Source: Thermodesulfobacteriota bacterium
GTDB lineage: Bacteria; Desulfobacterota_D; UBA1144; Nemesobacterales; UBA2774
DNA length: 64,000 nt
Reading direction: 5' to 3'
Assembly: GCA_965216785.1 (NCBI GenBank)
Contig: OZ244197.1
Coordinates: 96,001-160,000, forward strand
The notes beneath the pieces are model-generated. The model saw nothing but the letters and a program-made list of their open reading frames with translations. It was not told where the DNA came from and made no database searches. Below are positions 12,487 through 28,275 of the stretch, in pieces. Made by a program: the position numbers and the translations under genes. Numbering within the stretch: position 1 is the stretch's first letter; each line of letters begins with the position of its first letter.

Positions 12487-12699
12487 GTGACAGCAAAAAG
12501 ATTAAGAACTAAAATGTTTCAGGTTTGGCTGCATCCGAAAGAGTATGAGTTTCTAAATACATATGCCAAAGAAAATATGATGACAGCGTCCGAGATAGTA
12601 CGCGGATGGATACACGAAGTCATGAAACGGGAAGGGCTTGTGATTAAGGAGCCTTCTCTTCCGGAGCTCTCAAAAACTAAAAAGGGGGTTAAGAATTAA
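12487..12699 (+). CDS. Ribbon-helix-helix (CopG-like) regulator coupled to integrase
   Basis: FQVWL..KEYEFL..YA....TASEIVR pattern; probable near-leaderless GTG; TAATG overlap with int. Confidence 0.65.
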   Translation: MTAKRLRTKMFQVWLHPKEYEFLNTYAKENMMTASEIVRGWIHEVMKREGLVIKEPSLPELSKTKKGVKN

Positions 12700-13772
12700 T
12701 GGGGAGTGTATATCTGAGAGGTAATTCATATGTAGGCCAGTATAGAGATAGGGGCAGAATAGTACAGAAGACATTAGGGAAAAAAGGGGTAATTACAAAA
12801 ACAGCAGCTCGGGCAATTCTAGCGAAGCTGGAGGAAGCAGTCATGCTGAAGAAATACGACTTGCTCGATGCCGATATTCCCACCTTGAATGAATTTGCAA
12901 GTGAATATATTAAACATGGCAAAGAAGTATTAAAGAAGAGGTCATGGGAACGTGACATATATGGATTAAGACAGTTCAAAGAACACTATGGCAATCGCTT
13001 ACTTTCTGAAATAACATCTAGGAACATAGATGATTTCAAGAAGATTAGACTTAAAGCTGTCTCAACTGGTACTGTGAACAGGGAGCTACAATGTATTAGA
13101 AGTCTCTTCAATCTAGCTAAACGTTGGAAAAGATTTTTTGGTAATAACCCAGTTAGCGAAGCCAGACTTATACAGGTTAATAACCAAAAAGAGCGCATAC
13201 TTTCAAAGGAAGAAGAGGATAGACTTCTGGCACTCTCTAATCCTTACCTCAAGCCGATTCTGATTACAGCTTTAAACACTGGTATGAGGAAAAATGAGAT
13301 ACTTACCCTAAAGTGGACAAATATTGACCGAGATACTAGTGTGATAACACTGGAACATACCAATACTAAAACTAAAACAACTAGGCGGATACCTATAAAC
13401 TCCGTTCTTAGAAAGCTATTATTAGAGCAAATGCTTAAGTCAGGTGGTAATGAATTTATTTTTCTTAACCCGACGGGTAATCCATATAAACGACATGACT
13501 CAATTAAAGGAGCATTCGAAAGACTTTGTAAAAAGGCTGGTGTAACAGGACTCCGTTTCCATGACCTTAGGCATACCGCTGCGACTAGAATGATAGAAGC
13601 AGGAGCGTCTATTGTGGCCGTGAGTAAAATTCTTGGACACTCAGATATTAAAATGACTATGCGTTATACACATCCCGATACTTCCCTAAAAGAAGCCGTA
13701 GAATTGCTGACAAAACCTATTATTTCCGAGCCAACTACTGACATATCCACTGACAATGAAGAAATGGGTTAA
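12699..13772 (+). CDS. Tyrosine recombinase/phage integrase (element B)
   Basis: TGMRKNEIL, HDLRHTAAT, ILGHSDIKMTMRY. Confidence 0.95.
   Translation: MGSVYLRGNSYVGQYRDRGRIVQKTLGKKGVITKTAARAILAKLEEAVMLKKYDLLDADIPTLNEFASEYIKHGKEVLKKRSWERDIYGLRQFKEHYGNRLLSEITSRNIDDFKKIRLKAVSTGTVNRELQCIRSLFNLAKRWKRFFGNNPVSEARLIQVNNQKERILSKEEEDRLLALSNPYLKPILITALNTGMRKNEILTLKWTNIDRDTSVITLEHTNTKTKTTRRIPINSVLRKLLLEQMLKSGGNEFIFLNPTGNPYKRHDSIKGAFERLCKKAGVTGLRFHDLRHTAATRMIEAGASIVAVSKILGHSDIKMTMRYTHPDTSLKEAVELLTKPIISEPTTDISTDNEEMG
13736..13756 (+). promoter_or_regulatory. Putative arm-type integrase sites, right end of element B
   Basis: Tandem ACTGACA with 12-bp period, same as 1459-1479. Confidence 0.7.
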
Positions 13773-13802
13773 TGTGCTCCGAACGAAAGTGCCCGTAAAA
13801 AG

Positions 13803-13880
13803 TGGTCGGGGTGGCCGGACTTGAACCGGCGGCCTCTGCGTCCCGAACGCAACGCTCTAGCCAATCTGAGCTACACCCCG
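13803..13880 (-). tRNA. tRNA-Pro (anticodon CGG), intact, CCA encoded
   Basis: CGGGGTGTAGCTCAGATTGGCTAGAGCGTTGCGTTCGGGACGCAGAGGCCGCCGGTTCAAGTCCGGCCACCCCGACCA folds as a cloverleaf. Confidence 0.97.
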
Positions 13881-13895
13881 TATTAAAGACTCAAT

Positions 13896-13924
13896 ATTTT
13901 ACCTAGTAAACATGACTTTTCTAG
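13896..13924 (-). promoter_or_regulatory. Putative element-supplied promoter for the intact tRNA-Pro
   Basis: TAAAAT (13901-13896) 15 nt upstream of tRNA +1; weak -35 (CTAGAA/TAGAAA). Confidence 0.5.
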
Positions 13925-13940
13925 GCCAATTAAGACTCTA

Positions 13941-13961
13941 TAGTTAGACAATGGTAAGACA
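13941..13961 (+). promoter_or_regulatory. Putative arm-type integrase sites, left end of element C
   Basis: TAGTTAGACA-a-TGGTAAGACA; same motif and 11-bp period at 19872-19892. Confidence 0.65.
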
Positions 13962-14553
13962 CCATAACCTACTATATTTCCTATGTAAGTATCTATTATA
14001 ACATAATATTCTCTATAAAGATAGTACTAGACACTACTAGAACTAGACTCATTTGAGTACATATTTGACTTGGCTAGTCAATAAGTTTCCTTTAATCTTC
14101 TACTATATTTAGAGGTAAGAGAATAGTGTCTCAGAGTGTTATAAACACTCATAATAGTAGGACTAATGGACTCTATATGACTATATGGTAATAATGGTGC
14201 TAGTCATAGTCTACAGTTGTACTCATAGAGCAATATTGGCTACTATAGACCCCCCTAGAAGACCCATAGGGGTACCTCTACACCACACAATATTCCAGCA
14301 TAGTACTCTTATGTGACCCCCATGATAATGAGGCTAGCTAAGTCCCCCACACACATATAAAATTATCAATAGACCCAGCTAGAAACATATATGACAATAT
14401 GCTCTTTTACTGTTCCCATAGTAAACATGAGAGCAGTTGGGCTTATGAATAGTACCAATAAATAATCCAACTTAAACTATGGAACTAATACCAACATCCG
14501 AACAATGACGATAATAGCTATTTTCGCTGCAGTCTTTCATTATTTTGACACTC

Positions 14554-14745
14554 TCAATCGATTGAAAAACAGTAACCAGATGGTTCAAAGTTCTTCTTGC
14601 CACATACACAACCAGAACCGCACATTGAGTGAGAAAAACACTTACCGGTAAAGCAGATACCAGCGAAGCAAGGCTTTGTCATATACACATAACCGGATAC
14701 TGCAACTGCTATTATAAAAACTCCAATCAAAATATATTTAATCAT
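14554..14745 (-). CDS. Small secreted Cys-rich peptide, cystine-knot-like
   Basis: GGAGG RBS, signal peptide, mature part with C-x4-C-x5-C-x3-C-x-C-x10-C. Confidence 0.7.
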   Translation of the reverse strand: MIKYILIGVFIIAVAVSGYVYMTKPCFAGICFTGKCFSHSMCGSGCVCGKKNFEPSGYCFSID

Positions 14746-15227
14746 TATGCACCTCCATTTATAAGTGTTAAAGCCTACAATAGCCTATTATACATATATC
14801 TCCGTTTTCCAGAAAGCTGTATACTTTGATATACCAACTCAGCCTTTAGGAATATTCTCTTATAACTAGTTGATTTAGCCGTCTCCGACCTGTTATCCAA
14901 TTCTGTCAACTTGCATAAAAAAACTAATAATATCTTTATATTACGTATCCATGTCCACTATACGAGGGTCTAGTACTTATATTAAATATTGACCCTAGAA
15001 AATTACCAGTGATGAGTATTACGTAACTTACTCATATCACTGCATATTATCATTTAGGCACATCTATAATTTGCACTATGAGTCATTTACTGAGAAATAG
15101 TTGCTATAGACCTACAGAGATAATGGTTCAATTGAGACCTATCCACCCCATATCCAAGTGGATAAACTGTCACAAACACTAATACATAGTATATACTTTC
15201 TATTGTATAAATACTACAAATTACCTA

Positions 15228-15256
15228 TTGACATTTGATAGATTATCAGGTTCAAT
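15228..15256 (+). promoter_or_regulatory. Putative polB promoter with palindrome in spacer
   Basis: TTGACA-17-TTCAAT; TGATA-gat-TATCA at 15236-15248. Confidence 0.4.
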
Positions 15257-15375
15257 GGTTTTTAACAAGACGTAGAATTATAGACCTAAACATAAATCAA
15301 GATAATCCAATGATAATAGTATCTTAGACCATGGTTTCGCAGATAGATCAATCTATGGCTCTGGAGTGATTAATA

Positions 15376-17643
15376 ATGAATGAATTAGAACTCAGTAGGA
15401 TAGATGATTCCAAGTACAATAGTGTAATAACCCCAGTAAAACGTGAAAAGAAGATACATGAGAACCCACTTATAATAGGATTTGATGCTAACTTATATCC
15501 TTATAAAGGAATGTTTCAGTATCTATCTCTGTCTTTCCATGTTGATGGGGAAACCAGAAGGTACTTTGCCAACGATATATATTATCCTTATAACACACCG
15601 CATACATGCAACGGTAAATACACTATAAAACTTCTTTCAGATTATATCTTTCATTTCCTTTCTGAACTTAAAATTGAATATGATTCAGACTGCATTTACC
15701 TCATAACCCATAATGCAAATGATGAATTAAGCCATTTTGATATATCTAAGAACTACAAACTAAAACCTATAGGTAAGGGTTTATGTTTAGAAGGCACAAT
15801 TAATAACACACTTCTAAATAAAGATCTCAAGCTCAGAATAATTGATATTTATAGCCTTATAAATAAAAGTCTCAAAGATATAGGCAATTATATAGGTATA
15901 CATAGAGTCACATGTAATGAGTTGTTTGAAAGACTTAAGGAATTGAGATTTGAGAATTTAGACATAAGCCAATTATTTGATGACGATATATTCGGGAATG
16001 ACTGCTTAATGGATGCTGAAATAACTTTTGAGGCATTCACGAGACTCAGGTTATTCTTTGTAGAAAATCATAATGTAGACATGCTCAACTTCTATTCACT
16101 CCCCTCACTAGCTGGATACATATTCCAGAGAGATCATATTAATAAACCAACTGTAAGATCAAAAACTATTAAAGAGGCTAGGAAGCAAAAGAAAACTCTT
16201 TCAGATGGTGATGAAAAATATTACGATGTTCCTCAGAAAAAAGAGATATTCAATGGTGATCTTAATGTTAGAAAATGTTCCATGTTGGCCTATCATGGAG
16301 CAAGGATAGAAACTTTCTGCAGAGGCCGGTTTGAAGACAAAAGACTCATATATTACGATGTAGATTCTCTATATCCTTCATCTTCCATACTACAGCCATT
16401 ACCAGTGGCTAATACTAGATGGGTTAACTACAATAAAAGAAACGCTGAAAAGTTTCTTAACCAAGCTGAGGGTTTCGTCGAGGTAGAGTTTAGCTATTCA
16501 CCTGAAACATTTTATCCATGCCTGCCTGTGTCTGGTCTAAGGGATAATATTCTATATTTCCCCCTATCTGGAATAACTTACTGCACTATTTCTGAGCTTA
16601 GAATGGCTATTAAGCTAGGTCTCAGTGATTATATGATTCTTTCAGGTTATTGTTTCTATCCTACCAAAAGAGAAAAGCAACACCCCCTAGCCAGCTTCAT
16701 GAATGACATGCTTGAGAGGAAGCAAAATTCTGAGAAGGGAAGTCTTGAATATATCATGTATAAAATGCAAATGAACTCCCTTGTTGGCAAGCTGGTACAA
16801 AGGGATAAGAACAATGAGACATTAGGAATGTTACATGAAGGCAGTATTTCCAGGGATGTATATGGGAGGGTTGATAATTATAGGAAAGCCAAGGTCGGTT
16901 CTCTGTGGTATCCGGAATGGGCTTCTCTAATTTTAGGAAAAGCTAGAGCCTTAATGTCTGAATTTATATGTAAGGGCACATATTTTATCTCCTCTGATTC
17001 CGTATTGTTACCAAAAGACATAGATATAAATTGTGATTCACTGGACGAATTAAGAAGTGTAGGAAGCAATCTCAGGAAAGAACATGATGTTGACCATGGA
17101 CTAATCATAAGAGCTAGATTGTATGCTCTAAATCCTCTAAATGAAAACCCTAGGCAAAGACATTTAGCTAGGCATGCTGTATCGTGTAAACCTGAAGAGT
17201 TTCGGAATATTATGATCGAGGGATATAAGACTAGAAACATTCCTGACATGTCGTTCACTTCTAAGAAAGCTGTTAAGTATGAAAAATCCATACTAGAAGG
17301 AAAACATTTAAACTCTATGGAAAAGAAGGAATCCAGTATTGAAATAAAATGGGATGGAAAGAGAAGACTATTTAAGGAAGTGGAGAATCCATTCTGTGAC
17401 TTTAGTTGGAGTAGAGCACTAGATGCCAAGGAAGTAGAAAACAATGATATGAGAAGACCTCCTAAACTGAAACCTGGAAGAAAGCAAGGTAAGAAGCTCG
17501 ATACTCCAAAGAAAAGGGACATTGTTAGACTATATAAGGAAGGCAAGAAACAAAAAGAAATAGCTAAGGAATTGGGTATATCCAAAGGATATGTAAGTAA
17601 GGTGTTCAAAGAATTTAATTTGAGTTATCGGGACTTGAACTAA
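15376..17643 (+). CDS. Family B DNA polymerase, primer-independent (piPolB)-like, with C-terminal HTH
   Basis: IGFDAN, YHGARIE, YDVDSLYPS, YPCLPV...FPLSG, KMQMNSLVGK, ISSDS, WDGKR motifs; C-terminal KQKEIAKELGISKGYVSK HTH. Confidence 0.88.
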   Translation: MNELELSRIDDSKYNSVITPVKREKKIHENPLIIGFDANLYPYKGMFQYLSLSFHVDGETRRYFANDIYYPYNTPHTCNGKYTIKLLSDYIFHFLSELKIEYDSDCIYLITHNANDELSHFDISKNYKLKPIGKGLCLEGTINNTLLNKDLKLRIIDIYSLINKSLKDIGNYIGIHRVTCNELFERLKELRFENLDISQLFDDDIFGNDCLMDAEITFEAFTRLRLFFVENHNVDMLNFYSLPSLAGYIFQRDHINKPTVRSKTIKEARKQKKTLSDGDEKYYDVPQKKEIFNGDLNVRKCSMLAYHGARIETFCRGRFEDKRLIYYDVDSLYPSSSILQPLPVANTRWVNYNKRNAEKFLNQAEGFVEVEFSYSPETFYPCLPVSGLRDNILYFPLSGITYCTISELRMAIKLGLSDYMILSGYCFYPTKREKQHPLASFMNDMLERKQNSEKGSLEYIMYKMQMNSLVGKLVQRDKNNETLGMLHEGSISRDVYGRVDNYRKAKVGSLWYPEWASLILGKARALMSEFICKGTYFISSDSVLLPKDIDINCDSLDELRSVGSNLRKEHDVDHGLIIRARLYALNPLNENPRQRHLARHAVSCKPEEFRNIMIEGYKTRNIPDMSFTSKKAVKYEKSILEGKHLNSMEKKESSIEIKWDGKRRLFKEVENPFCDFSWSRALDAKEVENNDMRRPPKLKPGRKQGKKLDTPKKRDIVRLYKEGKKQKEIAKELGISKGYVSKVFKEFNLSYRDLN

Positions 17644-17741
17644 TCACTATTTTATCTTCAATCTATCTTCACAATATGAGTCTAGTATATGTATCTAAAT
17701 ATAAGTTTGAAAAGTAGTGTGAATTTCTATAACTTAATAAT

Positions 17742-18521
17742 ATGATTTGTAAATCGGAACAATGTGGAAAGGAAATACCCAATAACTCAATATATTGCCC
17801 ATCTTGTGGTCATATTGTTGGCAACCAACCGCATAAAGTAATAGATGTAATTTATAGAAGTGGTATTTCAGAATTTAACGAAAATACAAGAATAAATCTA
17901 ATATTTAGTAGACATGATGTAGAGTTCCAAGAAAAACCCAAACTAAGTTTCCTAACAAATAAATTACACGAACCCAAGTATGTACTTTCTATAGATAATA
18001 TTAAAAGTGTCAAATTTTATGGAAGCACGGGAACAACTGCAATTAATACAGCAAACGGTGAAATAGTACTGTCAGAAAGACAATTTAGACTTTATGAAAT
18101 TTTTAGTCAATTATCAAATATTCCTTCAGATACTGTAGATGAGATTAAATCACCTCCATCGGATGCACCAGATTTACTTAAGTTCGTATGTATATCCCTA
18201 ATACTATTATCTCTTTTTGGCCTAAAACGATTCTTTAATAATGTAGGTAAAATTGATTTTAGCGATAATGCAAGTTTTGTATTAGGATTTTTTCTGAGCT
18301 TGCCAACTTTTATTTTGTTGATTCTGTCTTGCTACAAAATATTGCGAGGAAGAAAATGGGCATCATATTGTGCTCAAGTACTACTTGCCTTTTTTATATT
18401 GATAGCTTATCTAGAGTTTAAACTATCCCTTTTGGGAATATTAATAATCATAATCATATCAATTGTAATCTTTTATTTGAATACAAGAAAAGTAAAAGAC
18501 TATCTAAGGGATAAAAACTAA
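17742..18521 (+). CDS. Zinc-ribbon membrane protein
   Basis: N-terminal CKSEQCG...YCPSCG; four C-terminal TM segments. Confidence 0.75.
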   Translation: MICKSEQCGKEIPNNSIYCPSCGHIVGNQPHKVIDVIYRSGISEFNENTRINLIFSRHDVEFQEKPKLSFLTNKLHEPKYVLSIDNIKSVKFYGSTGTTAINTANGEIVLSERQFRLYEIFSQLSNIPSDTVDEIKSPPSDAPDLLKFVCISLILLSLFGLKRFFNNVGKIDFSDNASFVLGFFLSLPTFILLILSCYKILRGRKWASYCAQVLLAFFILIAYLEFKLSLLGILIIIIISIVIFYLNTRKVKDYLRDKN

Positions 18522-18545
18522 TTAAGCCTGTTTGTTATGGATTGA

Positions 18546-18731
18546 CCTAAATTTTATAAGTCCTTACAGTTCGCTAATTCAGTTAGAGCTAAATATCCTG
18601 AAGCATACTTCCGTAGGGGTATAGAACGAATAAGCATCAGTCAGATAGAAACTAGCTGTCTAGATCTCTCAAAATCAGGTGAATTAGGATTTTTCCAAAC
18701 CTGCGATTATATAAAAGAAATATGCCAATAA
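18546..18731 (+). pseudogene. Remnant C-terminus of a TPR protein
   Basis: Frame reads KYPEAYFRRG...SCLDLSKSGELGFFQTCDYIKEICQ*, preceded by in-frame TGA; not in the ORF track. Confidence 0.75.
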
Positions 18732-18744
18732 TCAAAACTACATT

Positions 18745-19788
18745 TCACTCTCTTTTATTTAGCCAGGGCAATCTAGACACGGTCTTTTTCTTATAATCGT
18801 TTGACACATGAGAGTAAATCATAGTAGTAGAAATACTAGAATGTCCGAGTAGTTCCTTAATAGAAACTAGGTCAACCTGATTCATGACTAAATGTGATGC
18901 AAAAGTATGTCTTACTGAGTGAGGGGTAGCTTTTATTCCGGCTTTAGAACATGCTTTATTGAAGCTGTTCTTAATACTCGTAACCCTAGAACCATCAGGG
19001 TGACAGATTAGATAGTTTTTCTGGTCAGCATGTCTAATTGAGACCTGCATTGATTTGGGATGTACATAGTACTTACTCAACCATTCTAACATTTCACTTA
19101 ACTCATAATTGATAGGAACTATCCTGTAGTTGCTAGTCTTCTGACTTTTCACTATGATCACATTATTCTCCAGGTCTATATCAGTGAATTTAAGCTGTAA
19201 TACCTCTCCTATCCTCATGCCGGTATTCCTTAGAACTATTATTATAGGTCTGAGCCATGCACTAGAGCACTCTAATAGACGCTGAACTTCTTCAATAGAT
19301 AGAAAGTTAGGTGGTCTTTTTGGTAGCTTTAAAATAGTAATATGAGGCACTTTTTCAATAAAGTTCCACTCTAATGCCTTTTTTAGTATGGCACTAAGAA
19401 CTGTAAGTTCTCTATTGAGACTAGAAGGAGCCAACCCTTGATCTATTCTGATAGATTTATAATCCTCAATGCATTTATTATCTATCTTCGCTAGACTCAA
19501 ATTACCAAATGAAATCTTGAGATGTTTGATGGCCTGAATTTCTCTTTTATATGTGGATTTCGCCTTATTGGTTTTACAATATTTCAGGTATTGATCTATA
19601 TAGTCATAAAAGAGTATTTCTTTAGTCTCTCTAATGTCTAACCTACCCTTTATATGTTCCAGTTCCAATTGCTTTAGAATCTTTCTGGCTTCCTTCTTAT
19701 CTACTCTCCCAATTCTAATCCACTTCTTCTTTCTATTAATACTGAATACGGCATAATAAGAATTATGTTTGTATGCTAATGAAGCCAT
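18745..19788 (-). CDS. Tyrosine recombinase/phage integrase (element C)
   Basis: TGMRIGEVL, HSVRHTFAS, LLGHSSISTTMIY; AGGAGG RBS. Confidence 0.95.
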   Translation of the reverse strand: MASLAYKHNSYYAVFSINRKKKWIRIGRVDKKEARKILKQLELEHIKGRLDIRETKEILFYDYIDQYLKYCKTNKAKSTYKREIQAIKHLKISFGNLSLAKIDNKCIEDYKSIRIDQGLAPSSLNRELTVLSAILKKALEWNFIEKVPHITILKLPKRPPNFLSIEEVQRLLECSSAWLRPIIIVLRNTGMRIGEVLQLKFTDIDLENNVIIVKSQKTSNYRIVPINYELSEMLEWLSKYYVHPKSMQVSIRHADQKNYLICHPDGSRVTSIKNSFNKACSKAGIKATPHSVRHTFASHLVMNQVDLVSIKELLGHSSISTTMIYSHVSNDYKKKTVSRLPWLNKRE

Positions 19789-19852
19789 AGCATGCCTCCT
19801 GAAGTTGATTCACAGGAAGGTCCTTCAGTAGATGGTGGGTTTTAACATTATC

Positions 19853-19892
19853 TGGTAAGTCTAGGGCTGTTTGGTTAGAACATGGTTAGACA
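19853..19892 (+). promoter_or_regulatory. Putative arm-type integrase sites, right end of element C
   Basis: TGGTAAGTCT, TGGTTAGAAC, TGGTTAGACA. Confidence 0.65.
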
Positions 19893-19970
19893 GCCTTGGC
19901 CTTAACTGGACTAGGAACCATATAACATATTGTACTTACTAGGTATTTTAGGTGGGTCTAAGGTGGTATA

Positions 19971-20017
19971 CTCTGCGTCCCGAACGCAACGCTCTAGCCA
20001 ATCTGAGCTACACCCCG
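19971..20017 (-). repeat. att site: 5' fragment (47 nt) of tRNA-Pro
   Basis: Identical to 13834-13880; lacks the T-arm, acceptor 3' strand and CCA. Confidence 0.95.
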
Positions 20018-20026
20018 TGAGCATTT

Positions 20027-20054
20027 AATTTACTATAAATAGAGCGGGTTGCAA
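20027..20054 (-). promoter_or_regulatory. Probable native tRNA-Pro promoter, now upstream of the 5' fragment
   Basis: TTGCAA-16-TAAATT ending 9 nt before the fragment's first base. Confidence 0.55.
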
Positions 20055-20188
20055 GAGAGCATAGTGTACTTTTTTCAGTGCTTTTCTGTACACGCCCTCG
20101 GTGTATTAAATATTGCCATTGAAATATGGATGACACTTAATACTTATCTAGCTTCGATACAGCCTTTAAGAGGTTCGGTTGATTGTAT

Positions 20189-20560
20189 CTAGTCCGAGCA
20201 CACCCACTCTTTTTGTTCGGGATTATATTCGAAGGAATCACACCACCCGTCCATCCACCAGTCTTCCCCTACGGTATAATTATTCCACCAAAAGTTTGCT
20301 GTGCCGGAGACAGTTTCTTTTTGTAATTTGCCTACATTTGTGAATTGAACCCTATCACTCTCACCCAATATCGCATCATCAGTTACTTCAACAACCACAA
20401 AAGAGATTTCCTCATCATCTTTTGTTATTATTTTTACTTTATCCCCAGGTTCTATGAGCGTTTGGATACTAGAAGGATTGTTTTTAATGCCCACATAGCT
20501 AGCGAACGGGGAACAGGATACAAAAAATGTTAGTAAGACGAATAATGTATATTGATTCAT
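20189..20560 (-). CDS. Hypothetical lipoprotein
   Basis: FFVSC lipobox. Confidence 0.65.
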   Translation of the reverse strand: MNQYTLFVLLTFFVSCSPFASYVGIKNNPSSIQTLIEPGDKVKIITKDDEEISFVVVEVTDDAILGESDRVQFTNVGKLQKETVSGTANFWWNNYTVGEDWWMDGWCDSFEYNPEQKEWVCSD

Positions 20561-20590
20561 TCTAATTAGGCTCTTCTAAACTGTTTCATA

Positions 20591-21532
20591 TTATTGAATC
20601 TCATTCACAACATTTACTGTGATATCACCAATTGCCCTAGTCAACATATTCACTACAAGTTCAGTATTGCTTTGCATGTCTTCCACATATTCACATTTAG
20701 GGTCATAATACAATTCCTCTCTTTCCCAAATGACTCTTCCATTTCTGGTTGAAACCATTTTCCCTTTTAAGTCTATCCACGTTCTAACTGAATATTGGAC
20801 ATATCTTTCTATAATCGGTTTCAATGTCTCTAGCTCTTTTAGCAATTCTGCTTGCTTATTAGATATTGCCGTTTCAGAACTAAATAGAAGCTCATTTACA
20901 CCACTTGGACCTATACGGCTATAAGTGTATTGACCATAAACTTCATTCCATCTCGTTATAGCTTCGTTATATCCTGTATCATCTGAGCTTAGCGGTCCCA
21001 AATAAGGTTTCTCCCCGATGAAACCCGATACAAGCTGTTTAGGGCAAAGCTTTACTTCAATATTTTCTATAGCAATATCCAACACCGTGTCAAAACCTTG
21101 TTGTGCCAATATCGAGGGGCTTTGAACTTTTGAAATCTCAGCTTCGAAAGAAGCACCCGTATTTTCAAAATAATCATCAATATGCTCAGACAATAATGTA
21201 TCAATATTGATTTCGGATATATCTTCTCCAAATTCATCCGCATAATTACTGTCTATGTTACTTCTGCGTAATTCTTCAACCACCATAGCTACCAAAAGGA
21301 AAGGTGCTATCAATCCTGAGGCTTCACTATTCATAAAAATCTCGTAATATCTTTTTTGCATCTTAGAAATATTTGCCTGGAGCTCTTCGTCTGCTTGTAC
21401 ATGTATAGCCATTTTTTTGATTCTGGATTTATCCGGTTCAGTTAGAGGAATAATAGTCCTGGTTTTAGGGGCGCAGGATGCTGATAGGATGAACAGGCTT
21501 AAACAAAATATAAAAAATGATTTGTGTTTCAT
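20591..21532 (-). CDS. Hypothetical lipoprotein
   Basis: LSASC lipobox, 313 aa. Confidence 0.7.
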   Translation of the reverse strand: MKHKSFFIFCLSLFILSASCAPKTRTIIPLTEPDKSRIKKMAIHVQADEELQANISKMQKRYYEIFMNSEASGLIAPFLLVAMVVEELRRSNIDSNYADEFGEDISEINIDTLLSEHIDDYFENTGASFEAEISKVQSPSILAQQGFDTVLDIAIENIEVKLCPKQLVSGFIGEKPYLGPLSSDDTGYNEAITRWNEVYGQYTYSRIGPSGVNELLFSSETAISNKQAELLKELETLKPIIERYVQYSVRTWIDLKGKMVSTRNGRVIWEREELYYDPKCEYVEDMQSNTELVVNMLTRAIGDITVNVVNEIQ

Positions 21533-21550
21533 TTTATTTTCCCTGTTTTT

Positions 21551-22606
21551 TTACGGACCGCTGCCGGTGTTTTCATCGGAAATGATTGTCCGGTCGCCAG
21601 TGAATTGGTCTATAAACACAACTGCACGTATATCACGTTCTCTATCAATTACTACAAAATCTCCATCTGCAGTCACTGCAATGGCTTTAGGGAGCAGTAT
21701 TTCCGGACCCATGCCGACGTTTCCATCAGATATGATTGAGCGGTCGCCTGTGAACTGATCAACATGCACTACAGCACCCATACCAGAATCAACTACCACA
21801 AAATCTCCACCAGGCGTCACTGCTATATCCTCGGGCATGTCAAATTCCGGTCCAATCCCGGTCGTCTCATCGGAAATGATCGTGCGGTCGCCTGTGATCT
21901 GATCCACATGTATTACGGTACCGAAGCCACCCAATCCAGTAACAATATCAAGTACTATATAATCCCCGTCTGATGTTGATTCTATGCTAACAGGGACCTC
22001 TATGCCCGGACCATTGCCCGTATTCTCATCAGAGATGATCGTACGGTCTCCCGTGATCTGATCTACATGTACTACTGCGGTCTGAAATCCATTAACCACC
22101 ACAAAATCGCCATCTGGTGTCACTGCCAAATCTCTCAAAAAGAAAAACTCAGGCCCGACACCAGTGTTTTCATCGGAAATGATTGTTCTCTTACCTGTGT
22201 TTTGATCTACATTCGCAACCGTGTTACCACCAAGTACTGCAAAATCCCCGCCTGCTCTTACCGCAATTCGACCAATACCAATATTCGCACCACCTCCCGT
22301 ACGGTCTTTATCTAGGGGTGCAAATTGTGAGATTATCACACGATCCCCTGTAACCTGATCCACATGCACTAACGCCCCCTGATCAGCCACCGCAAAATCT
22401 CCATCTGGCGTTACTACTATGTCATTAGGTTCGTGAAAGCCCATGAAAGGCTCGGACGGTCTAGAACGATTACAGTTTGAGCTCCCTCCAAGGACGCCGC
22501 AGCCTATTCCACAGCATTCAGGAGTATCGCAAGCCGATAATGAGACACTTATCATAATGACTAATAATAGAAAGCCCTGGAGTTTATATCCTTTAACGGT
22601 ATTCAT
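21551..22606 (-). CDS. Beta-propeller repeat lipoprotein (~50-aa DIAVTPDGDF...VDQxTGDRTIISD repeats)
   Basis: LSAC lipobox, Cys-rich linker, ~6 repeats; ATG 22606 with GGAGG, ATGA overlap. Confidence 0.8.
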   Translation of the reverse strand: MNTVKGYKLQGFLLLVIMISVSLSACDTPECCGIGCGVLGGSSNCNRSRPSEPFMGFHEPNDIVVTPDGDFAVADQGALVHVDQVTGDRVIISQFAPLDKDRTGGGANIGIGRIAVRAGGDFAVLGGNTVANVDQNTGKRTIISDENTGVGPEFFFLRDLAVTPDGDFVVVNGFQTAVVHVDQITGDRTIISDENTGNGPGIEVPVSIESTSDGDYIVLDIVTGLGGFGTVIHVDQITGDRTIISDETTGIGPEFDMPEDIAVTPGGDFVVVDSGMGAVVHVDQFTGDRSIISDGNVGMGPEILLPKAIAVTADGDFVVIDRERDIRAVVFIDQFTGDRTIISDENTGSGP

Positions 22607-23730
22607 ACATTTAACCTCCGCATTGGTTTTCTGAATTTTCTCTGGCAACGACCTAATCCTATTCTCACGGCGGCTATTACCAAAGGGATAAATAGAAAAA
22701 CCGGAATCGATGAAGCAGGGCCAATTGGCGCTACAGAACACCCACCGCCGGCTCCGGCTCCTGCACCGCCAAGTGCCACAGAGAAAACCTGGACACGGTC
22801 AGATTCTACAACGTATACATTGCCTGAGCTGTCCACGGCTACTCCATTTGGGGATACGATTTGAATCCTAGCATTTTCGTCGCTACTGCCGAACTTGAAA
22901 AGAAAGTTTCCGTTTAAATCGAATATCTGGATGCGATTATTGTTAGCGTCTGCGACGTATATATTGCCGGAGCTGTCGAGCGCAATGTCAGCAGGAAACA
23001 TAAATTCACCATCACCTGTCCCATTACTGCCGAACTTGAAAATAAAATTTCCGTTTGAATCAAATTTCTGGATGCGATGATTAGCCGAGTCCGCAACGTA
23101 GATATTCCCAGAATTGTCCAACTCTATATCTAAAGGCCCCATAAACTCGCCATCGCCCGAGCCTTTAGCGCCGAATTTAAAAATGAAATTGCCGTTTGAA
23201 TCAAATACTTGCACGCGATTATTCTCTTGCGCATGAATATCATTATTCGAGTCTGTGACGTAGATATTCCCTGAGCTGTCTAATGCGATGGCAGATGGAA
23301 ATCCAAATTCACCATCATCCGAGCCTTGTGTGCCGAACTCGAAAATGAAATTGCCGCTTGAATCAAACTTCTGGATGAGGCGATTCAATGCATCAGCTAC
23401 GTATATATTGCCTGAGCTCTCCAACCCCAAATCTGTTGGGCCGTCAAATAAGCCGTCAGTATGATTGGTTATGAACTCGAAAATGAAATTGCCGTTTGAA
23501 TCAAACTTCTGGATACGTTTATTTTCAGTGTCTGCAACGTAGATATTGCCTACGCTATCCAATTCTATATCAGATGCACCATCAAATTCGCCTTCACCGG
23601 AACCACAGGACCCAAAAGTTAAAATCAGAGTTACGGATGCTGCAAAAACAATATTCGTTATTATGACCATGAGTAATGGTATTAAAGTGATGGGACGCAA
23701 TATATTCATTACAGTTTGTTTGAATTTCAT
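22603..23730 (-). CDS. NHL-repeat 6-bladed beta-propeller with C-terminal GGGC/TM sorting tail
   Basis: DSSGNIYVAD..N.RIQKFD repeats; GGGCS, hydrophobic segment and basic tail. Confidence 0.85.
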   Translation of the reverse strand: MKFKQTVMNILRPITLIPLLMVIITNIVFAASVTLILTFGSCGSGEGEFDGASDIELDSVGNIYVADTENKRIQKFDSNGNFIFEFITNHTDGLFDGPTDLGLESSGNIYVADALNRLIQKFDSSGNFIFEFGTQGSDDGEFGFPSAIALDSSGNIYVTDSNNDIHAQENNRVQVFDSNGNFIFKFGAKGSGDGEFMGPLDIELDNSGNIYVADSANHRIQKFDSNGNFIFKFGSNGTGDGEFMFPADIALDSSGNIYVADANNNRIQIFDLNGNFLFKFGSSDENARIQIVSPNGVAVDSSGNVYVVESDRVQVFSVALGGAGAGAGGGCSVAPIGPASSIPVFLFIPLVIAAVRIGLGRCQRKFRKPMRRLNV

Positions 23731-23774
23731 GTTAGATCCTCCTTCTTGTATTAAAAATGAGACATTTTTTACAT

Positions 23775-25082
23775 TCAGAATGCACATTCATCAAACTCAA
23801 CTTCACTTGGGAATCGTATCTGTATCCAATTATGAACTATCAAATTTTGCTCTTCTGTGTGTGTTTTCATCAAATTGTTCTTATAGTAATAAGACATATT
23901 ATTGTCTCGAAGCAGTTGAAAGATTTGTCCGTTAAGATTAACAGTCGTAGCCGCAGTGCAGTCGATCTCGCGTATAAAGGGATCAGGTGGCGTATCTAAG
24001 AGACCGTCACCATCGAATACACTTGCGTTGCCCCCGTTATCGAAAAGAAAATCCTCGGCTTCGGCTAGAGTGTCGAATTCCTTGGCAAATGTGTGGCTGA
24101 GTCCAAAGTAATGGCCAATTTCATGTCCAAATAGTTCTATATTCTGCTCTCCACAGATACCAGTATCGTTAAATCCCGGCATAACAATGAAGTCATATCC
24201 AGTCGAAGAGAAACCTCCTCCAGTAGGAAAATTCCCGGGTCCGTGACGGAAGAATACAACTATTTTATTTGGGAACTCTGCCGCAATTGAATTACCAAAA
24301 CTCCTTACATTTTCCCATACCGGACCTGACGTGGACGAAAAGAGTATATTGTTCATATCTGTGTTCATTACTTCCATCCAATCAGGCCCCGTCTCACTTG
24401 GCTCAAACTCAAACTGAATTTTAGAATTGGCAAAGGTCTCGTTAGCTTTGTCTAGCCAAAGTTTCACCTCTTGCGGTGTGATATTGGCACTACGGCTACC
24501 GTCGTCATCAGATACTCTTACAGCAAGTACACGTATAGTTATATTCTTTATATCACATTGAAAACCAGTGCCGCACAGACTCTTTTCATCTAACCTGCAA
24601 GGCTCAAATCTAAACTCTCCGGACGCTACAGGGCTTAAATTCCCGCGGTTGTCCTCGGCCTGCACGGTCCACGTCCAGCCGCCAAGGTTGCTATCTATCA
24701 CAAACGAGTTACAGCTTGTATCGGTATATTCTGAATTGGGTACAAAAGTATTGATTATTGGTAATGTAGCTCCGGTACGCATAACAAATATGTGATAGCC
24801 TTTAATTCCGTTAGGTGAGTCGGAATCGGTCCAATCAAAAAAAATTCTATGGCCATAACCACGGACGGGATCAAGAGGACAGCCTATGCTCGGATTGTTC
24901 TGCTCGATTACATCGTGATTAATCGGTGTCAGCAGGACAGGTGTCGTTACATTTACAGCTTGCTCTGGCGGCGGATCTTCTGTAAATGAGTCTCCATCTT
25001 GCCCGCTGTTACAACCGCCGACTACTCCGAGCCCTATCAATACGACTAATACAGAAAATCCAATTAATTTTAGGTGTCTCAT
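23775..25082 (-). CDS. Lipoprotein zinc metalloprotease (M43/pappalysin-like)
   Basis: VGGC lipobox, HEIGHYFGLSH, DTPPDP, NNMSY Met-turn. Confidence 0.85.
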   Translation of the reverse strand: MRHLKLIGFSVLVVLIGLGVVGGCNSGQDGDSFTEDPPPEQAVNVTTPVLLTPINHDVIEQNNPSIGCPLDPVRGYGHRIFFDWTDSDSPNGIKGYHIFVMRTGATLPIINTFVPNSEYTDTSCNSFVIDSNLGGWTWTVQAEDNRGNLSPVASGEFRFEPCRLDEKSLCGTGFQCDIKNITIRVLAVRVSDDDGSRSANITPQEVKLWLDKANETFANSKIQFEFEPSETGPDWMEVMNTDMNNILFSSTSGPVWENVRSFGNSIAAEFPNKIVVFFRHGPGNFPTGGGFSSTGYDFIVMPGFNDTGICGEQNIELFGHEIGHYFGLSHTFAKEFDTLAEAEDFLFDNGGNASVFDGDGLLDTPPDPFIREIDCTAATTVNLNGQIFQLLRDNNMSYYYKNNLMKTHTEEQNLIVHNWIQIRFPSEVEFDECAF

Positions 25083-25231
25083 AATTACCCTCCAATAAGT
25101 TTTTTGCCACATGCCTAGACTTATAAACTACTTTTATGTCGATTAGCGCTATCAGTGCTATATTGCGTGTCGTTCTGCACCACCGTAGCCTCCTATTGGG
25201 GAACTCTTCGATTTATAATTCACCCTTTCCC

Positions 25232-25554
25232 TCAATCTTTGATCTTATTAACTATCTCTATAGCAAACAAGAAAAGCGCTATAAGCACTGGACATAACCC
25301 ATATATACAAACATCAATAATCTCATTAAACCACGCATCCATATTTACACCCCACTCTTGTAATCTATTGTTAAAGACCCTTATCCATAATTCAGACGTT
25401 TCCACTTAGTTATGTCTATTAATGTGCTCACATCATTCAGGGATTCGGAGAGCATTGTATAGATTCCAAATATATAGAAGCTGAAGAAAATGAGAATAAG
25501 AGAGCAAATCCCCAGGATTTGAAGTAGGTATTTAAATCTTTTAAGTTCGTTCAT
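25232..25554 (-). pseudogene. Possible frameshifted small membrane protein, divergent target of TetR
   Basis: GAGG RBS plus ATG 25554 gives a 57-aa TM ORF; a second frame continues with another TM segment to 25232. Confidence 0.35.
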
Positions 25555-25598
25555 TTCTTACCTCTTTTTAATTCGCATTGAATTTCCCATTCAGGAAA

Positions 25599-25666
25599 TG
25601 AACACTGTTTAATTCCATAGTATCACAGAATTGAACACTGTTCAAGAGGTAATTTAACAATGTTCA
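25599..25666. promoter_or_regulatory. Three TetR operators, consensus TGAACA-n-TGTTCA
   Basis: 25599-25611, 25631-25645 (perfect arms), 25654-25666. Confidence 0.8.
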
Positions 25667-25684
25667 AAAAAATCAGTTATACTT

Positions 25685-26293
25685 ATGTATATGGGAAGAA
25701 GAAGCGATCATTCACGTGATAAGATTAAGCAGATGGCTATAGATGCAGGAAGGAATTTAATAGAAACTAAAGGCTTTTCAGGGCTAAGTGCGAGGAAGGT
25801 CGCAAAAGAAATAGGATACACGGTGGGAACATTATACAATGTATTCGATAACTTCACTGACCTAATTTGTCACATAAACTACACTACATTGGAAAGCCTA
25901 AAGGCACATCTTGAAGAAAACTCCAAACCCGGCAAAAACAGAGTCGAGGCGCTAAAACAGCTAGGAGAGTCTTATGTCGAGTTTGCAAGAGACAACACTC
26001 ACCTTTGGTCTGCTCTATTTGAATTTCAGCATCCAAAAGATTATCTATTGCCAAAATGGTATTCCGATAAGGTCAGGAGCATTTTCGAGCTGCCGGTAAA
26101 AATTATAGCTCCAATATTCAATGGAAACATGAATAGGGCGGAATATGAAACAAGGGTAGTTTGGGGAGGCGTTCACGGAATATGCCTTTTAGGTGTAAGC
26201 GATAGACTAGGTCTCGGCAGTGACGAATTGCTCAAATCAAAAGTAAATTCTCTTATCACTAATTATATGAGAGGAATGGGTGTTGAAGAATGA
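25685..26293 (+). CDS. TetR/AcrR family regulator (WHG-type C-terminus)
   Basis: LSARKVAKEIGYTVGTLYNVF HTH; WGGVHG. Confidence 0.92.
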   Translation: MYMGRRSDHSRDKIKQMAIDAGRNLIETKGFSGLSARKVAKEIGYTVGTLYNVFDNFTDLICHINYTTLESLKAHLEENSKPGKNRVEALKQLGESYVEFARDNTHLWSALFEFQHPKDYLLPKWYSDKVRSIFELPVKIIAPIFNGNMNRAEYETRVVWGGVHGICLLGVSDRLGLGSDELLKSKVNSLITNYMRGMGVEE

Positions 26294-26338
26294 ATTCAGC
26301 TAGATAATTCCTCTTTAATCCATGTTTGAATTGCTCGA

Positions 26339-27073
26339 CTACATCCTGTTACACCTTAACACAACCGCTCCACCGCTCGAATAATTTCCGGCAGGCGTGA
26401 AGATCGGATCAAGTCCCGACATGTAATCCCCTTCATTTCTAAGAGTGAAGTTCTTGCCCGCCATATAGTAACCATCCGGGAACTCTATATATATATCAGC
26501 CTTATTTTTACCCTTGACGTCTCCGCTTATTTTGCCCCCGCCTTTATTTTTTATCCATATATGGTCATTTGCATTACCAGAAATATGCCCTTCAAGATTA
26601 CTTCCATTTTGCCTGATGTTGAGTATCGCTTTGCCGCATTCCCACATACCTGAAAAGCTCTTAACCTTTGGATCACGGATAGATGGATCCATATTTAAAG
26701 CCTCATATGTTACACCCCAATATATGGAATTCGGATTCTGATCCACGCCGGGATTATTTCTCTGAAAAGACTTTTTTGTTTTATAATATTTACCTGTTCT
26801 AGGGTTTTTGTATCCTCTTGCCTCTGCATGCAAAGTTATTATCCCTACAGGCACACCTAAATCATGATATCCCCCGGGGGGTATTTCTATCTCATTAGTT
26901 ATCGTTTTCTTACTATAGTCAAGAGAGTGATCCGAATAGTACTCCGCCCATACCGTTAAAGTAACTCCTGTGTTATTTTTGATTGTTGCAGCAGTAAGCG
27001 GCCTATAAGCAAATGAATTATCCGCTAAACAAAAGAGAAGAATAAATGCCATAACTGATGTAACAGATTTCAT
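26339..27073 (-). CDS. Hypothetical secreted protein
   Basis: Signal peptide SFA-Y; beta-rich. Confidence 0.7.
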   Translation of the reverse strand: MKSVTSVMAFILLFCLADNSFAYRPLTAATIKNNTGVTLTVWAEYYSDHSLDYSKKTITNEIEIPPGGYHDLGVPVGIITLHAEARGYKNPRTGKYYKTKKSFQRNNPGVDQNPNSIYWGVTYEALNMDPSIRDPKVKSFSGMWECGKAILNIRQNGSNLEGHISGNANDHIWIKNKGGGKISGDVKGKNKADIYIEFPDGYYMAGKNFTLRNEGDYMSGLDPIFTPAGNYSSGGAVVLRCNRM

Positions 27074-27227
27074 ATCTAGATCCTTCCATTAATTGATTCT
27101 AAAAGAAGCAGGTTGGCTTCTACCTTGTCATTTTTGATTCAGTCTCTTCATGAGCTACATCTCATTGAGAGTTAATTTACTATAGCATGAGTGGACTGCA
27201 AAATATATATATTGAAACTGAGAAGGA

Positions 27228-27891: not shown

Positions 27892-28275
27892 CTAAACACT
27901 TGGGGGAAAGAGCCTTGACAGGCTGCCGTAGCAGTCGGGACATATGAACTGGTTTACAGAAACCATAACCAAACTGCCGCCTGCGTGGCCGCATGCCCAG
28001 CAGCGAAAAGCCTCAAGCGGCTTTATATCACTCTCCGCCTGCTCGCTACCGTGATATTTATCGTACAATGATTGGGAAGTGCCTTTGTATTCCATGAGAC
28101 GGCAGAGCACGTACTCATTGCGCTTACGCTCGTGGTACTTCTCGTCTATGTACATGTAAATGAGCATCCGGGGGCCCGAATGAAGAGAGAAAGGATTAAA
28201 AGCTTCTCTTATATCCTCGAAACTATGAGCTTCTTTTTCCTTCTTTAACTGCAAAACGCCGTTCTTATTATTCAT
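27892..28275 (-). CDS. Hypothetical protein with C-terminal zinc finger
   Basis: CWAC...CPDC; AGGAGG upstream. Confidence 0.65.
   Translation of the reverse strand: MNNKNGVLQLKKEKEAHSFEDIREAFNPFSLHSGPRMLIYMYIDEKYHERKRNEYVLCRLMEYKGTSQSLYDKYHGSEQAESDIKPLEAFRCWACGHAGGSLVMVSVNQFICPDCYGSLSRLFPPSV

Follow-up and report, generated by a model that had tools for sequence, protein, structure and literature searches.

A 5'-restoring island at tRNA-Pro(CGG) with a probable non-inverted origin and a plausible exchange of promoters

Zhao and Williams in 2002 reportedly described an element that lay in reversed orientation and carried the 5' part of its target tRNA gene. Table 1 of the Islander paper gives a 5' fragment for 159 of 3919 islands (PMC4383910), and 5'-distal recombination is described as considerably less frequent in PMC6563490. 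In the experimental account of ICEKp1, the host tRNA promoter drives int when the element is integrated and a promoter at the element end does so when it is excised (PMC13023037), and a similar switch, between Pint and Pcirc, is given for ICEclc (PMC5812530). We analyzed element C, an island at the tRNA-Pro(CGG) gene of a Thermodesulfobacteriota bacterium, in a window of 64,000 nucleotides (nt) (assembly GCA_965216785.1, contig OZ244197.1, positions 96,001 to 160,000). Coordinates are positions in this window, except those marked C1, which refer to the genome. Element C proved to be a genuine tRNA island of the 5'-restoring kind, a class already known. It probably descends from a 3'-restoring ancestor by a swap of the carried tRNA half without inversion, such that a promoter at the element end would now serve the tRNA. 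The defining features are as follows.

13803..13880, minus strand: complete tRNA-Pro(CGG) gene at element C's far junction (ARAGORN, Rfam, and repeat search)
13834..13881, minus strand: 48-nt identity block, tRNA nt -1 to 47 (exact repeat)
19971..20017, minus strand: displaced 5' tRNA fragment, nt 1-47, 100% identical (exact repeat)
18745..19788, minus strand: intC, a tyrosine integrase of 347 amino acids, co-oriented with the tRNA and with R-H-R-H-Y motifs (Pfam PF00589)

The single tRNA in the window is tRNA-Pro(CGG) (ARAGORN and Rfam), and no second CGG isoacceptor was found among the 45 tRNA and transfer-messenger RNA genes of the 3.12-Mb single-contig genome. An earlier, sequence-only reading of this locus had identified the duplication at the far end of element C as the first 47 nt of the tRNA, and an exact 48-nt direct repeat (13834-13881 and 19971-20018), composed of tRNA nt 1-47 and one upstream base, bore this out. 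The fragment lies upstream of the intact gene, both on the minus strand. Bounded by the two copies of the 5' 47 nt, element C spans ~6.1 kb and has a GC content of 0.34, compared with 0.47 for the core. Joining the ends in silico left the whole tRNA at attB and none on an attP circle of 6137 bp. The integrase scored 121 bits with PF00589 and 140-146 with the XerC, XerD, and XerA models, under their cut-offs of 220-335, and was thus classed as non-Xer. Identity blocks overlap on the anticodon loop, that of C extending to nt 47, that of the island in relative G047 to nt 40, and that of element B, a neighboring 3'-restoring island, starting from nt 31. This overlap makes the anticodon loop (13847-13841) the putative crossover region of C.

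It is exceedingly improbable that the copy at 19971-20017 is an assembly artefact, an objection that the sequence-only reading had itself anticipated. Contigs from short-read runs X1 and X4 carried all three repeat junctions with zero differing letters, and the contig pieces 13852-20000 and 19989-25425 had nearly equal depth (82.9 vs 80 and 272.7 vs 282.2). The same layout was present in G022, G047, G095, and G013. On the other side, no contig piece spans the whole island, and because both runs possibly derive from the source sample, they are a test of the assembly and no independent case. Runs X5 and X6 consisted of short scattered pieces and were unused, and a zero-depth bin at 12841-13381 in X1 and X4 was disregarded (record filter).

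The ends of element C carry short motifs that can be compared with those of related islands.

13941..13960, minus strand: distal pair of putative arm-type repeats, consensus TCT[A/T]AC, at -113/-102 from the anticodon loop (motif comparison)
19872..19892, minus strand: proximal putative arm-type repeats, two copies, +93/+104 relative to the loop (motif comparison)
13995..14003, minus strand: TGTTATAAT, a candidate extended -10 box that faces outward, 114 nt upstream of the tRNA and at -156 from the loop, conserved in 3'-restoring sisters

Paired TCT[A/T]AC (TCTAAC) repeats at both ends are putative arm sites, as is general for lambda-type integrases. Together with homology to the far ends of sister islands, the repeats supported the proposal that DNA upstream of the intact tRNA belongs to the element. 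In the 3'-restoring Thr island of G005, which like C has int and an opposed family-B DNA polymerase (PolB) gene within about 6-6.6 kb, the pairs lie at -112/-102 and +94/+104 (by pattern start), within one base of their offsets in C, and TGTTATAAT is at -156 in both islands. As in the 3'-restoring sisters, int in C lies downstream of the first tRNA copy and points the same way. Since C shares both its orientation and its end-motif offsets with 3'-restoring G005, it did not invert; it carries the 5' part of its target, and its orientation is not reversed relative to its 3'-restoring relatives.

A classic inverted island is a very improbable description of C. In such islands the integrase reportedly uses the symmetric anticodon arm backwards, a mechanism ascribed to Zhao and Williams. 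Inversion is common in this lineage, accounting for 17 of the 81 classifiable integrases of the survey presented below, but int in the inverted members of the intC group diverges from the tRNA, whereas in C it is co-oriented downstream of the first tRNA copy. This geometry contradicts an inverted origin, unless it is the Thr sisters that are inverted.

Phylogeny placed the 5' mode inside a 3'-restoring group. A careful tree based on 31 integrases joined C, L124, and L082 in a clade (100/99) within the clade of Thr(CGT) 3'-restoring integrases (100/98), whose sister is a 3'-type Met integrase (96/93). Monophyly of all five 5' integrases that keep the orientation of their 3'-type kin was rejected (p of the approximately unbiased test [p-AU] 0.0002). 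A further tree, of 106 rows, was a quick tree only. The sequence-only reading had raised the question of whether homologous integrases also flank 5' tRNA fragments; those of L082 (nt 1-57) and G095 do, whereas the Thr(CGT) sisters are 3'-restoring. A metagenome scan found three close relatives among 20 loci, and a scan of viral contigs with intC found no relative. The identity blocks are graded, with Ala 1-57 in L082, Pro 1-49 in G095, Pro 1-47 in C, and Thr 12-75 in G021, which suggests passage through a longer or whole tRNA copy.

C could instead be a 3'-restoring or whole-tRNA island whose upstream copy lost its 3' half by deletion after integration, as a local accident. Such an island would have the orientation that C shares with its 3'-restoring sisters, and L082, which keeps nt 1-57, indicates that erosion of the 3' part occurs. 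The deletion would, however, shorten the distance from the loop to the proximal repeats, for which C, L082, G095, and the sisters all give +93/+104, and the DNA past the fragment is homologous in C and in G095, which belongs to a different genus. We consider a local deletion improbable.

The promoter arrangement involves the DNA beyond the 5' fragment.

20027..20054, minus strand: P2, native-type tRNA-Pro promoter motif TTGCAA-16-TAAATT, 28.2 bits, the best genome-wide match of a matrix trained on relatives
27151..27201, minus strand: P1, another copy of this motif (11.4 bits; repeat and matrix), with a decayed tRNA 5' start behind it; a candidate for the chromosome's original promoter
20055..27150, no strand assigned: region D, a 7.1-kb cargo block lacking an integrase, GC content 0.41, encoding NHL, M12-like, TetR, and other proteins (Pfam, GC, and repeats)

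We picked 14 relatives with an apparently empty 5' side at this locus; G002, G012, G027, G028, G036, G048, G050, and carriers of 5' islands were excluded. The pattern TTG-19-TA[AG]A[AT]T preceded the intact tRNA in 12 of them, and in the other two it was recognized by eye, one base longer. A matrix built from those 12, with the present genome excluded from training, found four sites above 14 bits in this genome, with P2 at the top, and gave -5.1 before the intact tRNA. The conserved tRNA-Pro promoter motif of the lineage thus precedes the fragment and not the intact gene. P2, upstream of the 5' fragment, consists of TTGCAA (20054-20049), a 16-nt spacer, and TAAATT (20032-20027), and intC starts at 19788, 182-183 bases past the fragment. 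This layout, with 183 bp to int and a TAAAAT at -15 before the intact tRNA, is as first described. The native motif in 12 of 14 relatives also agrees with the expectation that empty sites lack DNA resembling that from 13881 onward; such DNA occurred in G002, which is a relic.

In the sequence-only reading, a chromosomal promoter drives int. The motif is indeed of native type, but its chromosomal origin is weakened by P1: given this second copy at 27201-27151, with its decayed tRNA start, P2 may be a copy brought by an older island. Region D is likely the relic of such a 5'-restoring island. P1 is similar to the promoter in G001, of the same genus, where a homolog of 27892-28275 adjoins the promoter. 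Promoter copies are likewise carried by islands in G022, G013, and G047, and in G095 a C-like integrase lies behind a promoter copy carried by an older island. Neither an arm-type repeat nor an integrase was found in region D, which counts against an island-borne P2, and the case for an island origin of the region therefore draws on the duplicated promoter, GC content, and analogues. Among 11 5'-type islands with both ends, six duplicate the upstream 40 nt (at least 29 matches) and five, including C, replace them.

On the other side of the exchange, the intact tRNA is preceded by element DNA.

13881..13945, minus strand: leader region E, supplied by the element, lacking the native motif (-5.1 bits) and containing an imperfect hairpin as well as a weak TAGAAA-16-TAAAAT (13923-13896); the tRNA of G002 is preceded by a homologous region

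The sequence-only reading took TAAAAT (13901-13896), which ends 15 nt upstream of the intact tRNA, for the element promoter. The site is present, and TAGAAA-16-TAAAAT matches 9 of 12 positions at the native 16-nt spacing. Sigma-70-like sites in 13700-20300, however, numbered 29 against 28.9 expected from shuffles, which puts TAAAAT at chance level. The consensus scan is blind to extended -10 sites, and the box TGTTATAAT is a better candidate. Its pattern, TGnTATAAT, has 144 genome-wide occurrences and a single one in element C, and the box is conserved in sister islands of G005, G011, and G021. We lean slightly toward TGTTATAAT as the candidate tRNA promoter, ahead of the proximal site or read-through. 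A lone terminator-like site in 13700-20300 was located at 14664-14644, and ~240 nt separate P2 from int with no terminator between.

RNA structure was considered for region E as well. Its hairpin gave z -3.1 here (0 of 500 shuffles) and -0.7 in G002 (124 of 500), and the structure claim was dropped because the hairpin is strong here and not in G002. In ICEKp1- and ICEclc-type switches the int leader has attenuating stem-loops; that of C, scored whole, folded worse than 180 of 200 shuffles (z +1.3).

Integrase-less relics keep comparable DNA before their tRNA genes.

L032, 3214-4140 (G002, tRNA-Pro(CGG)): relic locus, C-type end directly before the tRNA
L236, 16886-19771 (G011, tRNA-Ala(CGC)): relic locus, C-type end directly before the tRNA

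In both, a C-type far end directly precedes an intact tRNA. The G011 relic retains TGTTACACT at -152 before tRNA-Ala(CGC). At the G002 locus, a cargo gene is followed by a degenerate arm repeat and region E, including TAAAAT, and then by the only tRNA-Pro(CGG); neither a native motif within 6 kb upstream of this tRNA nor an integrase was found. No 5' fragment was present within 40 kb upstream of the G011 relic, and none was found upstream of that in G002, whose genome is 82% complete. If the relics are read correctly, an island end can remain the only upstream region of a tRNA after the island itself has decayed (G002 and G011).

Taken as a whole, the original proposal describes a purpose-built reciprocal swap, with TAAAAT as the tRNA promoter, a chromosomal promoter for int, and an addiction-like cost of imprecise loss. 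The retention of exactly region E, TAAAAT included, before the only tRNA-Pro(CGG) of G002, with no native motif within 6 kb, speaks for it, as do the 9 of 12 match at native spacing and the 30% share of CCG among Pro codons (six-frame open frames of at least 300 amino acids). It is nevertheless unlikely, given that TAAAAT is at chance level and lies inside the hairpin of inconsistent strength, that the int-side layout is ancestral and known, that P2 is perhaps island-borne, and that Pro(CGG) is non-essential in E. coli. A costly loss of the left end is doubtful because only Pro(UGG) is described as essential among the tRNA-Pro species of E. coli (PMC9643105) and this genome encodes Pro(UGG). 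The exchange of promoters thus appears plausible, and half of it is generic. The supply of a new 5' half by the element stood, but the int half is not special to C. The layout in which a host promoter faces int and an end promoter would replace it in the circle is shared by the 3'-restoring sisters and is published for ICEKp1 and ICEclc, and so does not follow from 5' restoration.

We propose the following course of events. The ancestor would have been a 3'-restoring Thr-type island with an outward end promoter serving int in the circle, and the tRNA half carried in attP would have been exchanged inside an arm scaffold of fixed length, with the orientation kept. When C is integrated, transcription from P2 would cross the half-tRNA and enter int, and TGTTATAAT at the element end would yield a pre-tRNA whose leader is about 105 nt long. 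Excision as a circle of 6137 bp would point the end promoter at int, whose start would lie 343 nt away, and would once more leave a whole tRNA behind P2 at the empty site. Of this switch, the part concerning int is inherited and known; the 5' mode adds only the dependence of the tRNA on the island end.

Several points weigh against this origin by a non-inverted swap. The direction of the root depends on one tree and a small, lineage-limited sample, support is weak for the inner nodes ordering the Thr sisters (82/56 and 92/84), and L082 and L124 are known without their far ends. Recombination between islands could have joined a 5'-type att site to this scaffold. The circle and the empty site of C are in-silico joins, and the promoter at the element end is a predicted one. 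The box is altered at the far end of the Thr island of this genome (G000), where it reads CATGATAAAT, and no TGTTATAAT box was found at the far ends in G022, G013, and G095. The G002 relic includes the proximal region only and stops short of the box, so that its tRNA must depend either on the weak proximal site or on transcription running in from the gene upstream.

More broadly, we tentatively suggest that orientation and carried half may be independent and switchable in attP, that a length-neutral exchange within a fixed arm scaffold may let an island whose far end already bears an outward promoter seize transcription of the tRNA, and that the end may outlive the island. All four combinations of orientation and tRNA half are present in the lineage. 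The fourth, with int co-oriented just upstream of a 3' fragment, was seen at C1 2026842-2027730 and at L169 and L189; the integrases concerned come from a group whose 3'-type members mostly converge on the tRNA.

A survey of integrases in the lineage gave 103 matches above 120 bits, of which 81 had a classifiable tRNA end nearby, 20 had none, and two were unclear. Fifty-nine of the 81 were 3'-type and 22 were 5'-type. The latter comprised 17 inverted integrases, among them those of this genome's Ser and Arg islands and five in the intC group, and five in the same orientation as their 3'-type kin. The 5' fragment was seen in 14 of the 22 and both ends in nine; the others were assigned by geometry. 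In this genome, three of the eight integrase-bearing tRNA islands were 5'-type. Islands of the 5' type are several times commoner in this lineage than the 4% in Islander, and a binomial p value against that figure is only indicative because kin are non-independent and two pairs are near-duplicates. Further islands with 5' fragments were noted at C1 1322020-1330340 (Leu-CAA, without an integrase match), 1598985-1618944 (Ser-TGA), and 1806935-1825231 (Arg-CCT). In the last two the integrase is inverted, and these integrases are akin to those of elements B and A.

The tRNA targeted by C is also used from its other side.

12699..13772, plus strand: integrase of element B, the neighboring 3'-restoring island on the other side of the same tRNA (3' fragment at 1273-1320)

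Fragments of the 3' part of tRNA-Pro (nt 31-78) lie at 1273-1320 and 20 kb farther out (C1 77160-77207). tRNA-Pro(CGG) is thus exploited from both sides, by two islands that restore its 3' part on one flank and by one or two that restore its 5' part on the other. All of the working gene would then stem from islands, its 5' half from C and its 3' half from B. The open reading frame (ORF) of the element A integrase (183-1370) spans the 3' fragment at 1273-1320, so its C-terminus would differ between the integrated and the circular form.

Some further observations concern the island ends. A block of 41-44 nt at 14083-14126, in the far non-coding region of C, is 93-98% identical in the G005 and G011 sisters, better conserved than coding DNA, and is possibly an origin or a protein-binding site. 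CTAG is dense at the island ends (13881-14400 and 19789-19970), with 18.5 per kb compared with 1.2 in the genome. The region of the int ribosome-binding site (e.g., CTTACGCAGGAGGCA) recurs in the far arm of sister islands, just past the extended -10 box (L103 at about 1230 and 7540, and the Thr island of genome C1), and this repeat is a possible operator or pairing element.

Besides int, element C encodes three predicted products.

15376..17643, plus strand: family-B DNA polymerase (PF03175), 755 amino acids, with a C-terminal helix-turn-helix (HTH); homologs in five related islands
17742..18521, plus strand: zinc-ribbon protein, 259 amino acids, with hydrophobic stretches, cargo (ORF and Pfam search)
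14554..14745, minus strand: cysteine-rich ORF, 63 amino acids, without a Pfam family (ORF and Pfam search)

No conjugation genes were found among these four ORFs. Small tRNA islands with a tyrosine integrase and a PolB-HTH protein form a family found in 6 of 101 genomes of the order (window 15376-17643, L102, L103, L116, L134, and L135). Compared with the piPolB motifs SxTTDG and KH-X8-KTRG, the polymerases had S[ST]DS in five of five and RxR[LG]Y for KTRG, and the H was unconserved. The exonuclease motif was degenerate in three of five aligned homologs, and the HTH is C-terminal. The structural model had low confidence (predicted local distance difference test 50.7), too weak for the TPR1 and TPR2 subdomains. 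Foldseek ranked phi29 polymerase first for this model (E 1.5e-8, template modeling score 0.23), which serves as a lead only, and a sequence search of the PDB gave no match below E 0.19. In the pipolin descriptions, 99.8% of delimited elements use the 3' end (PMC5695915 and PMC11551731). C shares with the pipolins described there a PolB and a tyrosine integrase between direct repeats at a tRNA, and the first Asp of the PolC motif is replaced in both. The family thus appears pipolin-like in lifestyle and, judged by gene content, is a candidate for kinship with pipolins.

Literature that was mostly open access and without supplements held no account of non-inverted 5' restoration or of islands in this lineage. 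Because the 5'-restoring layout and the integration-dependent switch of int are already in print, the finding in its first form is not new. The new part is the probable non-inverted origin of the 5' mode within a fixed attP scaffold, with reuse of an existing end promoter. The sister comparison offers a concrete route by which integrases might change both target and polarity without inversion. Element C and the Thr islands of G005 and of this genome form a matched natural pair for the study of attP architecture, of int expression across a whole or a half tRNA, and of the control of a host tRNA by an island.

Compared with known systems, C resembles the element type of Zhao and Williams in carrying the tRNA 5' part but differs in having kept its orientation and changed the half. 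The Islander 5' islands match C in their non-Xer tyrosine integrase, co-oriented upstream 5' fragment, and size range (2-200 kb), and the anticodon-centered core of that class is putative in C; the main account of that collection does not separate inverted from non-inverted 5' islands or treat promoters (PMC4383910). Outside tRNA genes, dusA-associated islands are described as supplying a new gene 5' end with putative -10 and -35 boxes (PMC4482086), and at prfC an SXT/R391 island supplies the 5' end of the gene (PMC5812530); the target of C is a tRNA gene, with the anticodon arm as the putative core. As described for ICEKp1, int of C is co-oriented downstream of the tRNA promoter (161 bp in ICEKp1 and 182 in C), and an end promoter would face int in the circle, although in C the candidate for this outward far-end promoter is the conserved TGTTATAAT motif, missing in some relatives. 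Both ICEKp1 and ICEclc are presented as 3'-restoring conjugative elements, unlike C, in which read-through would cross a half-tRNA and the end promoter would serve the tRNA as well as int.

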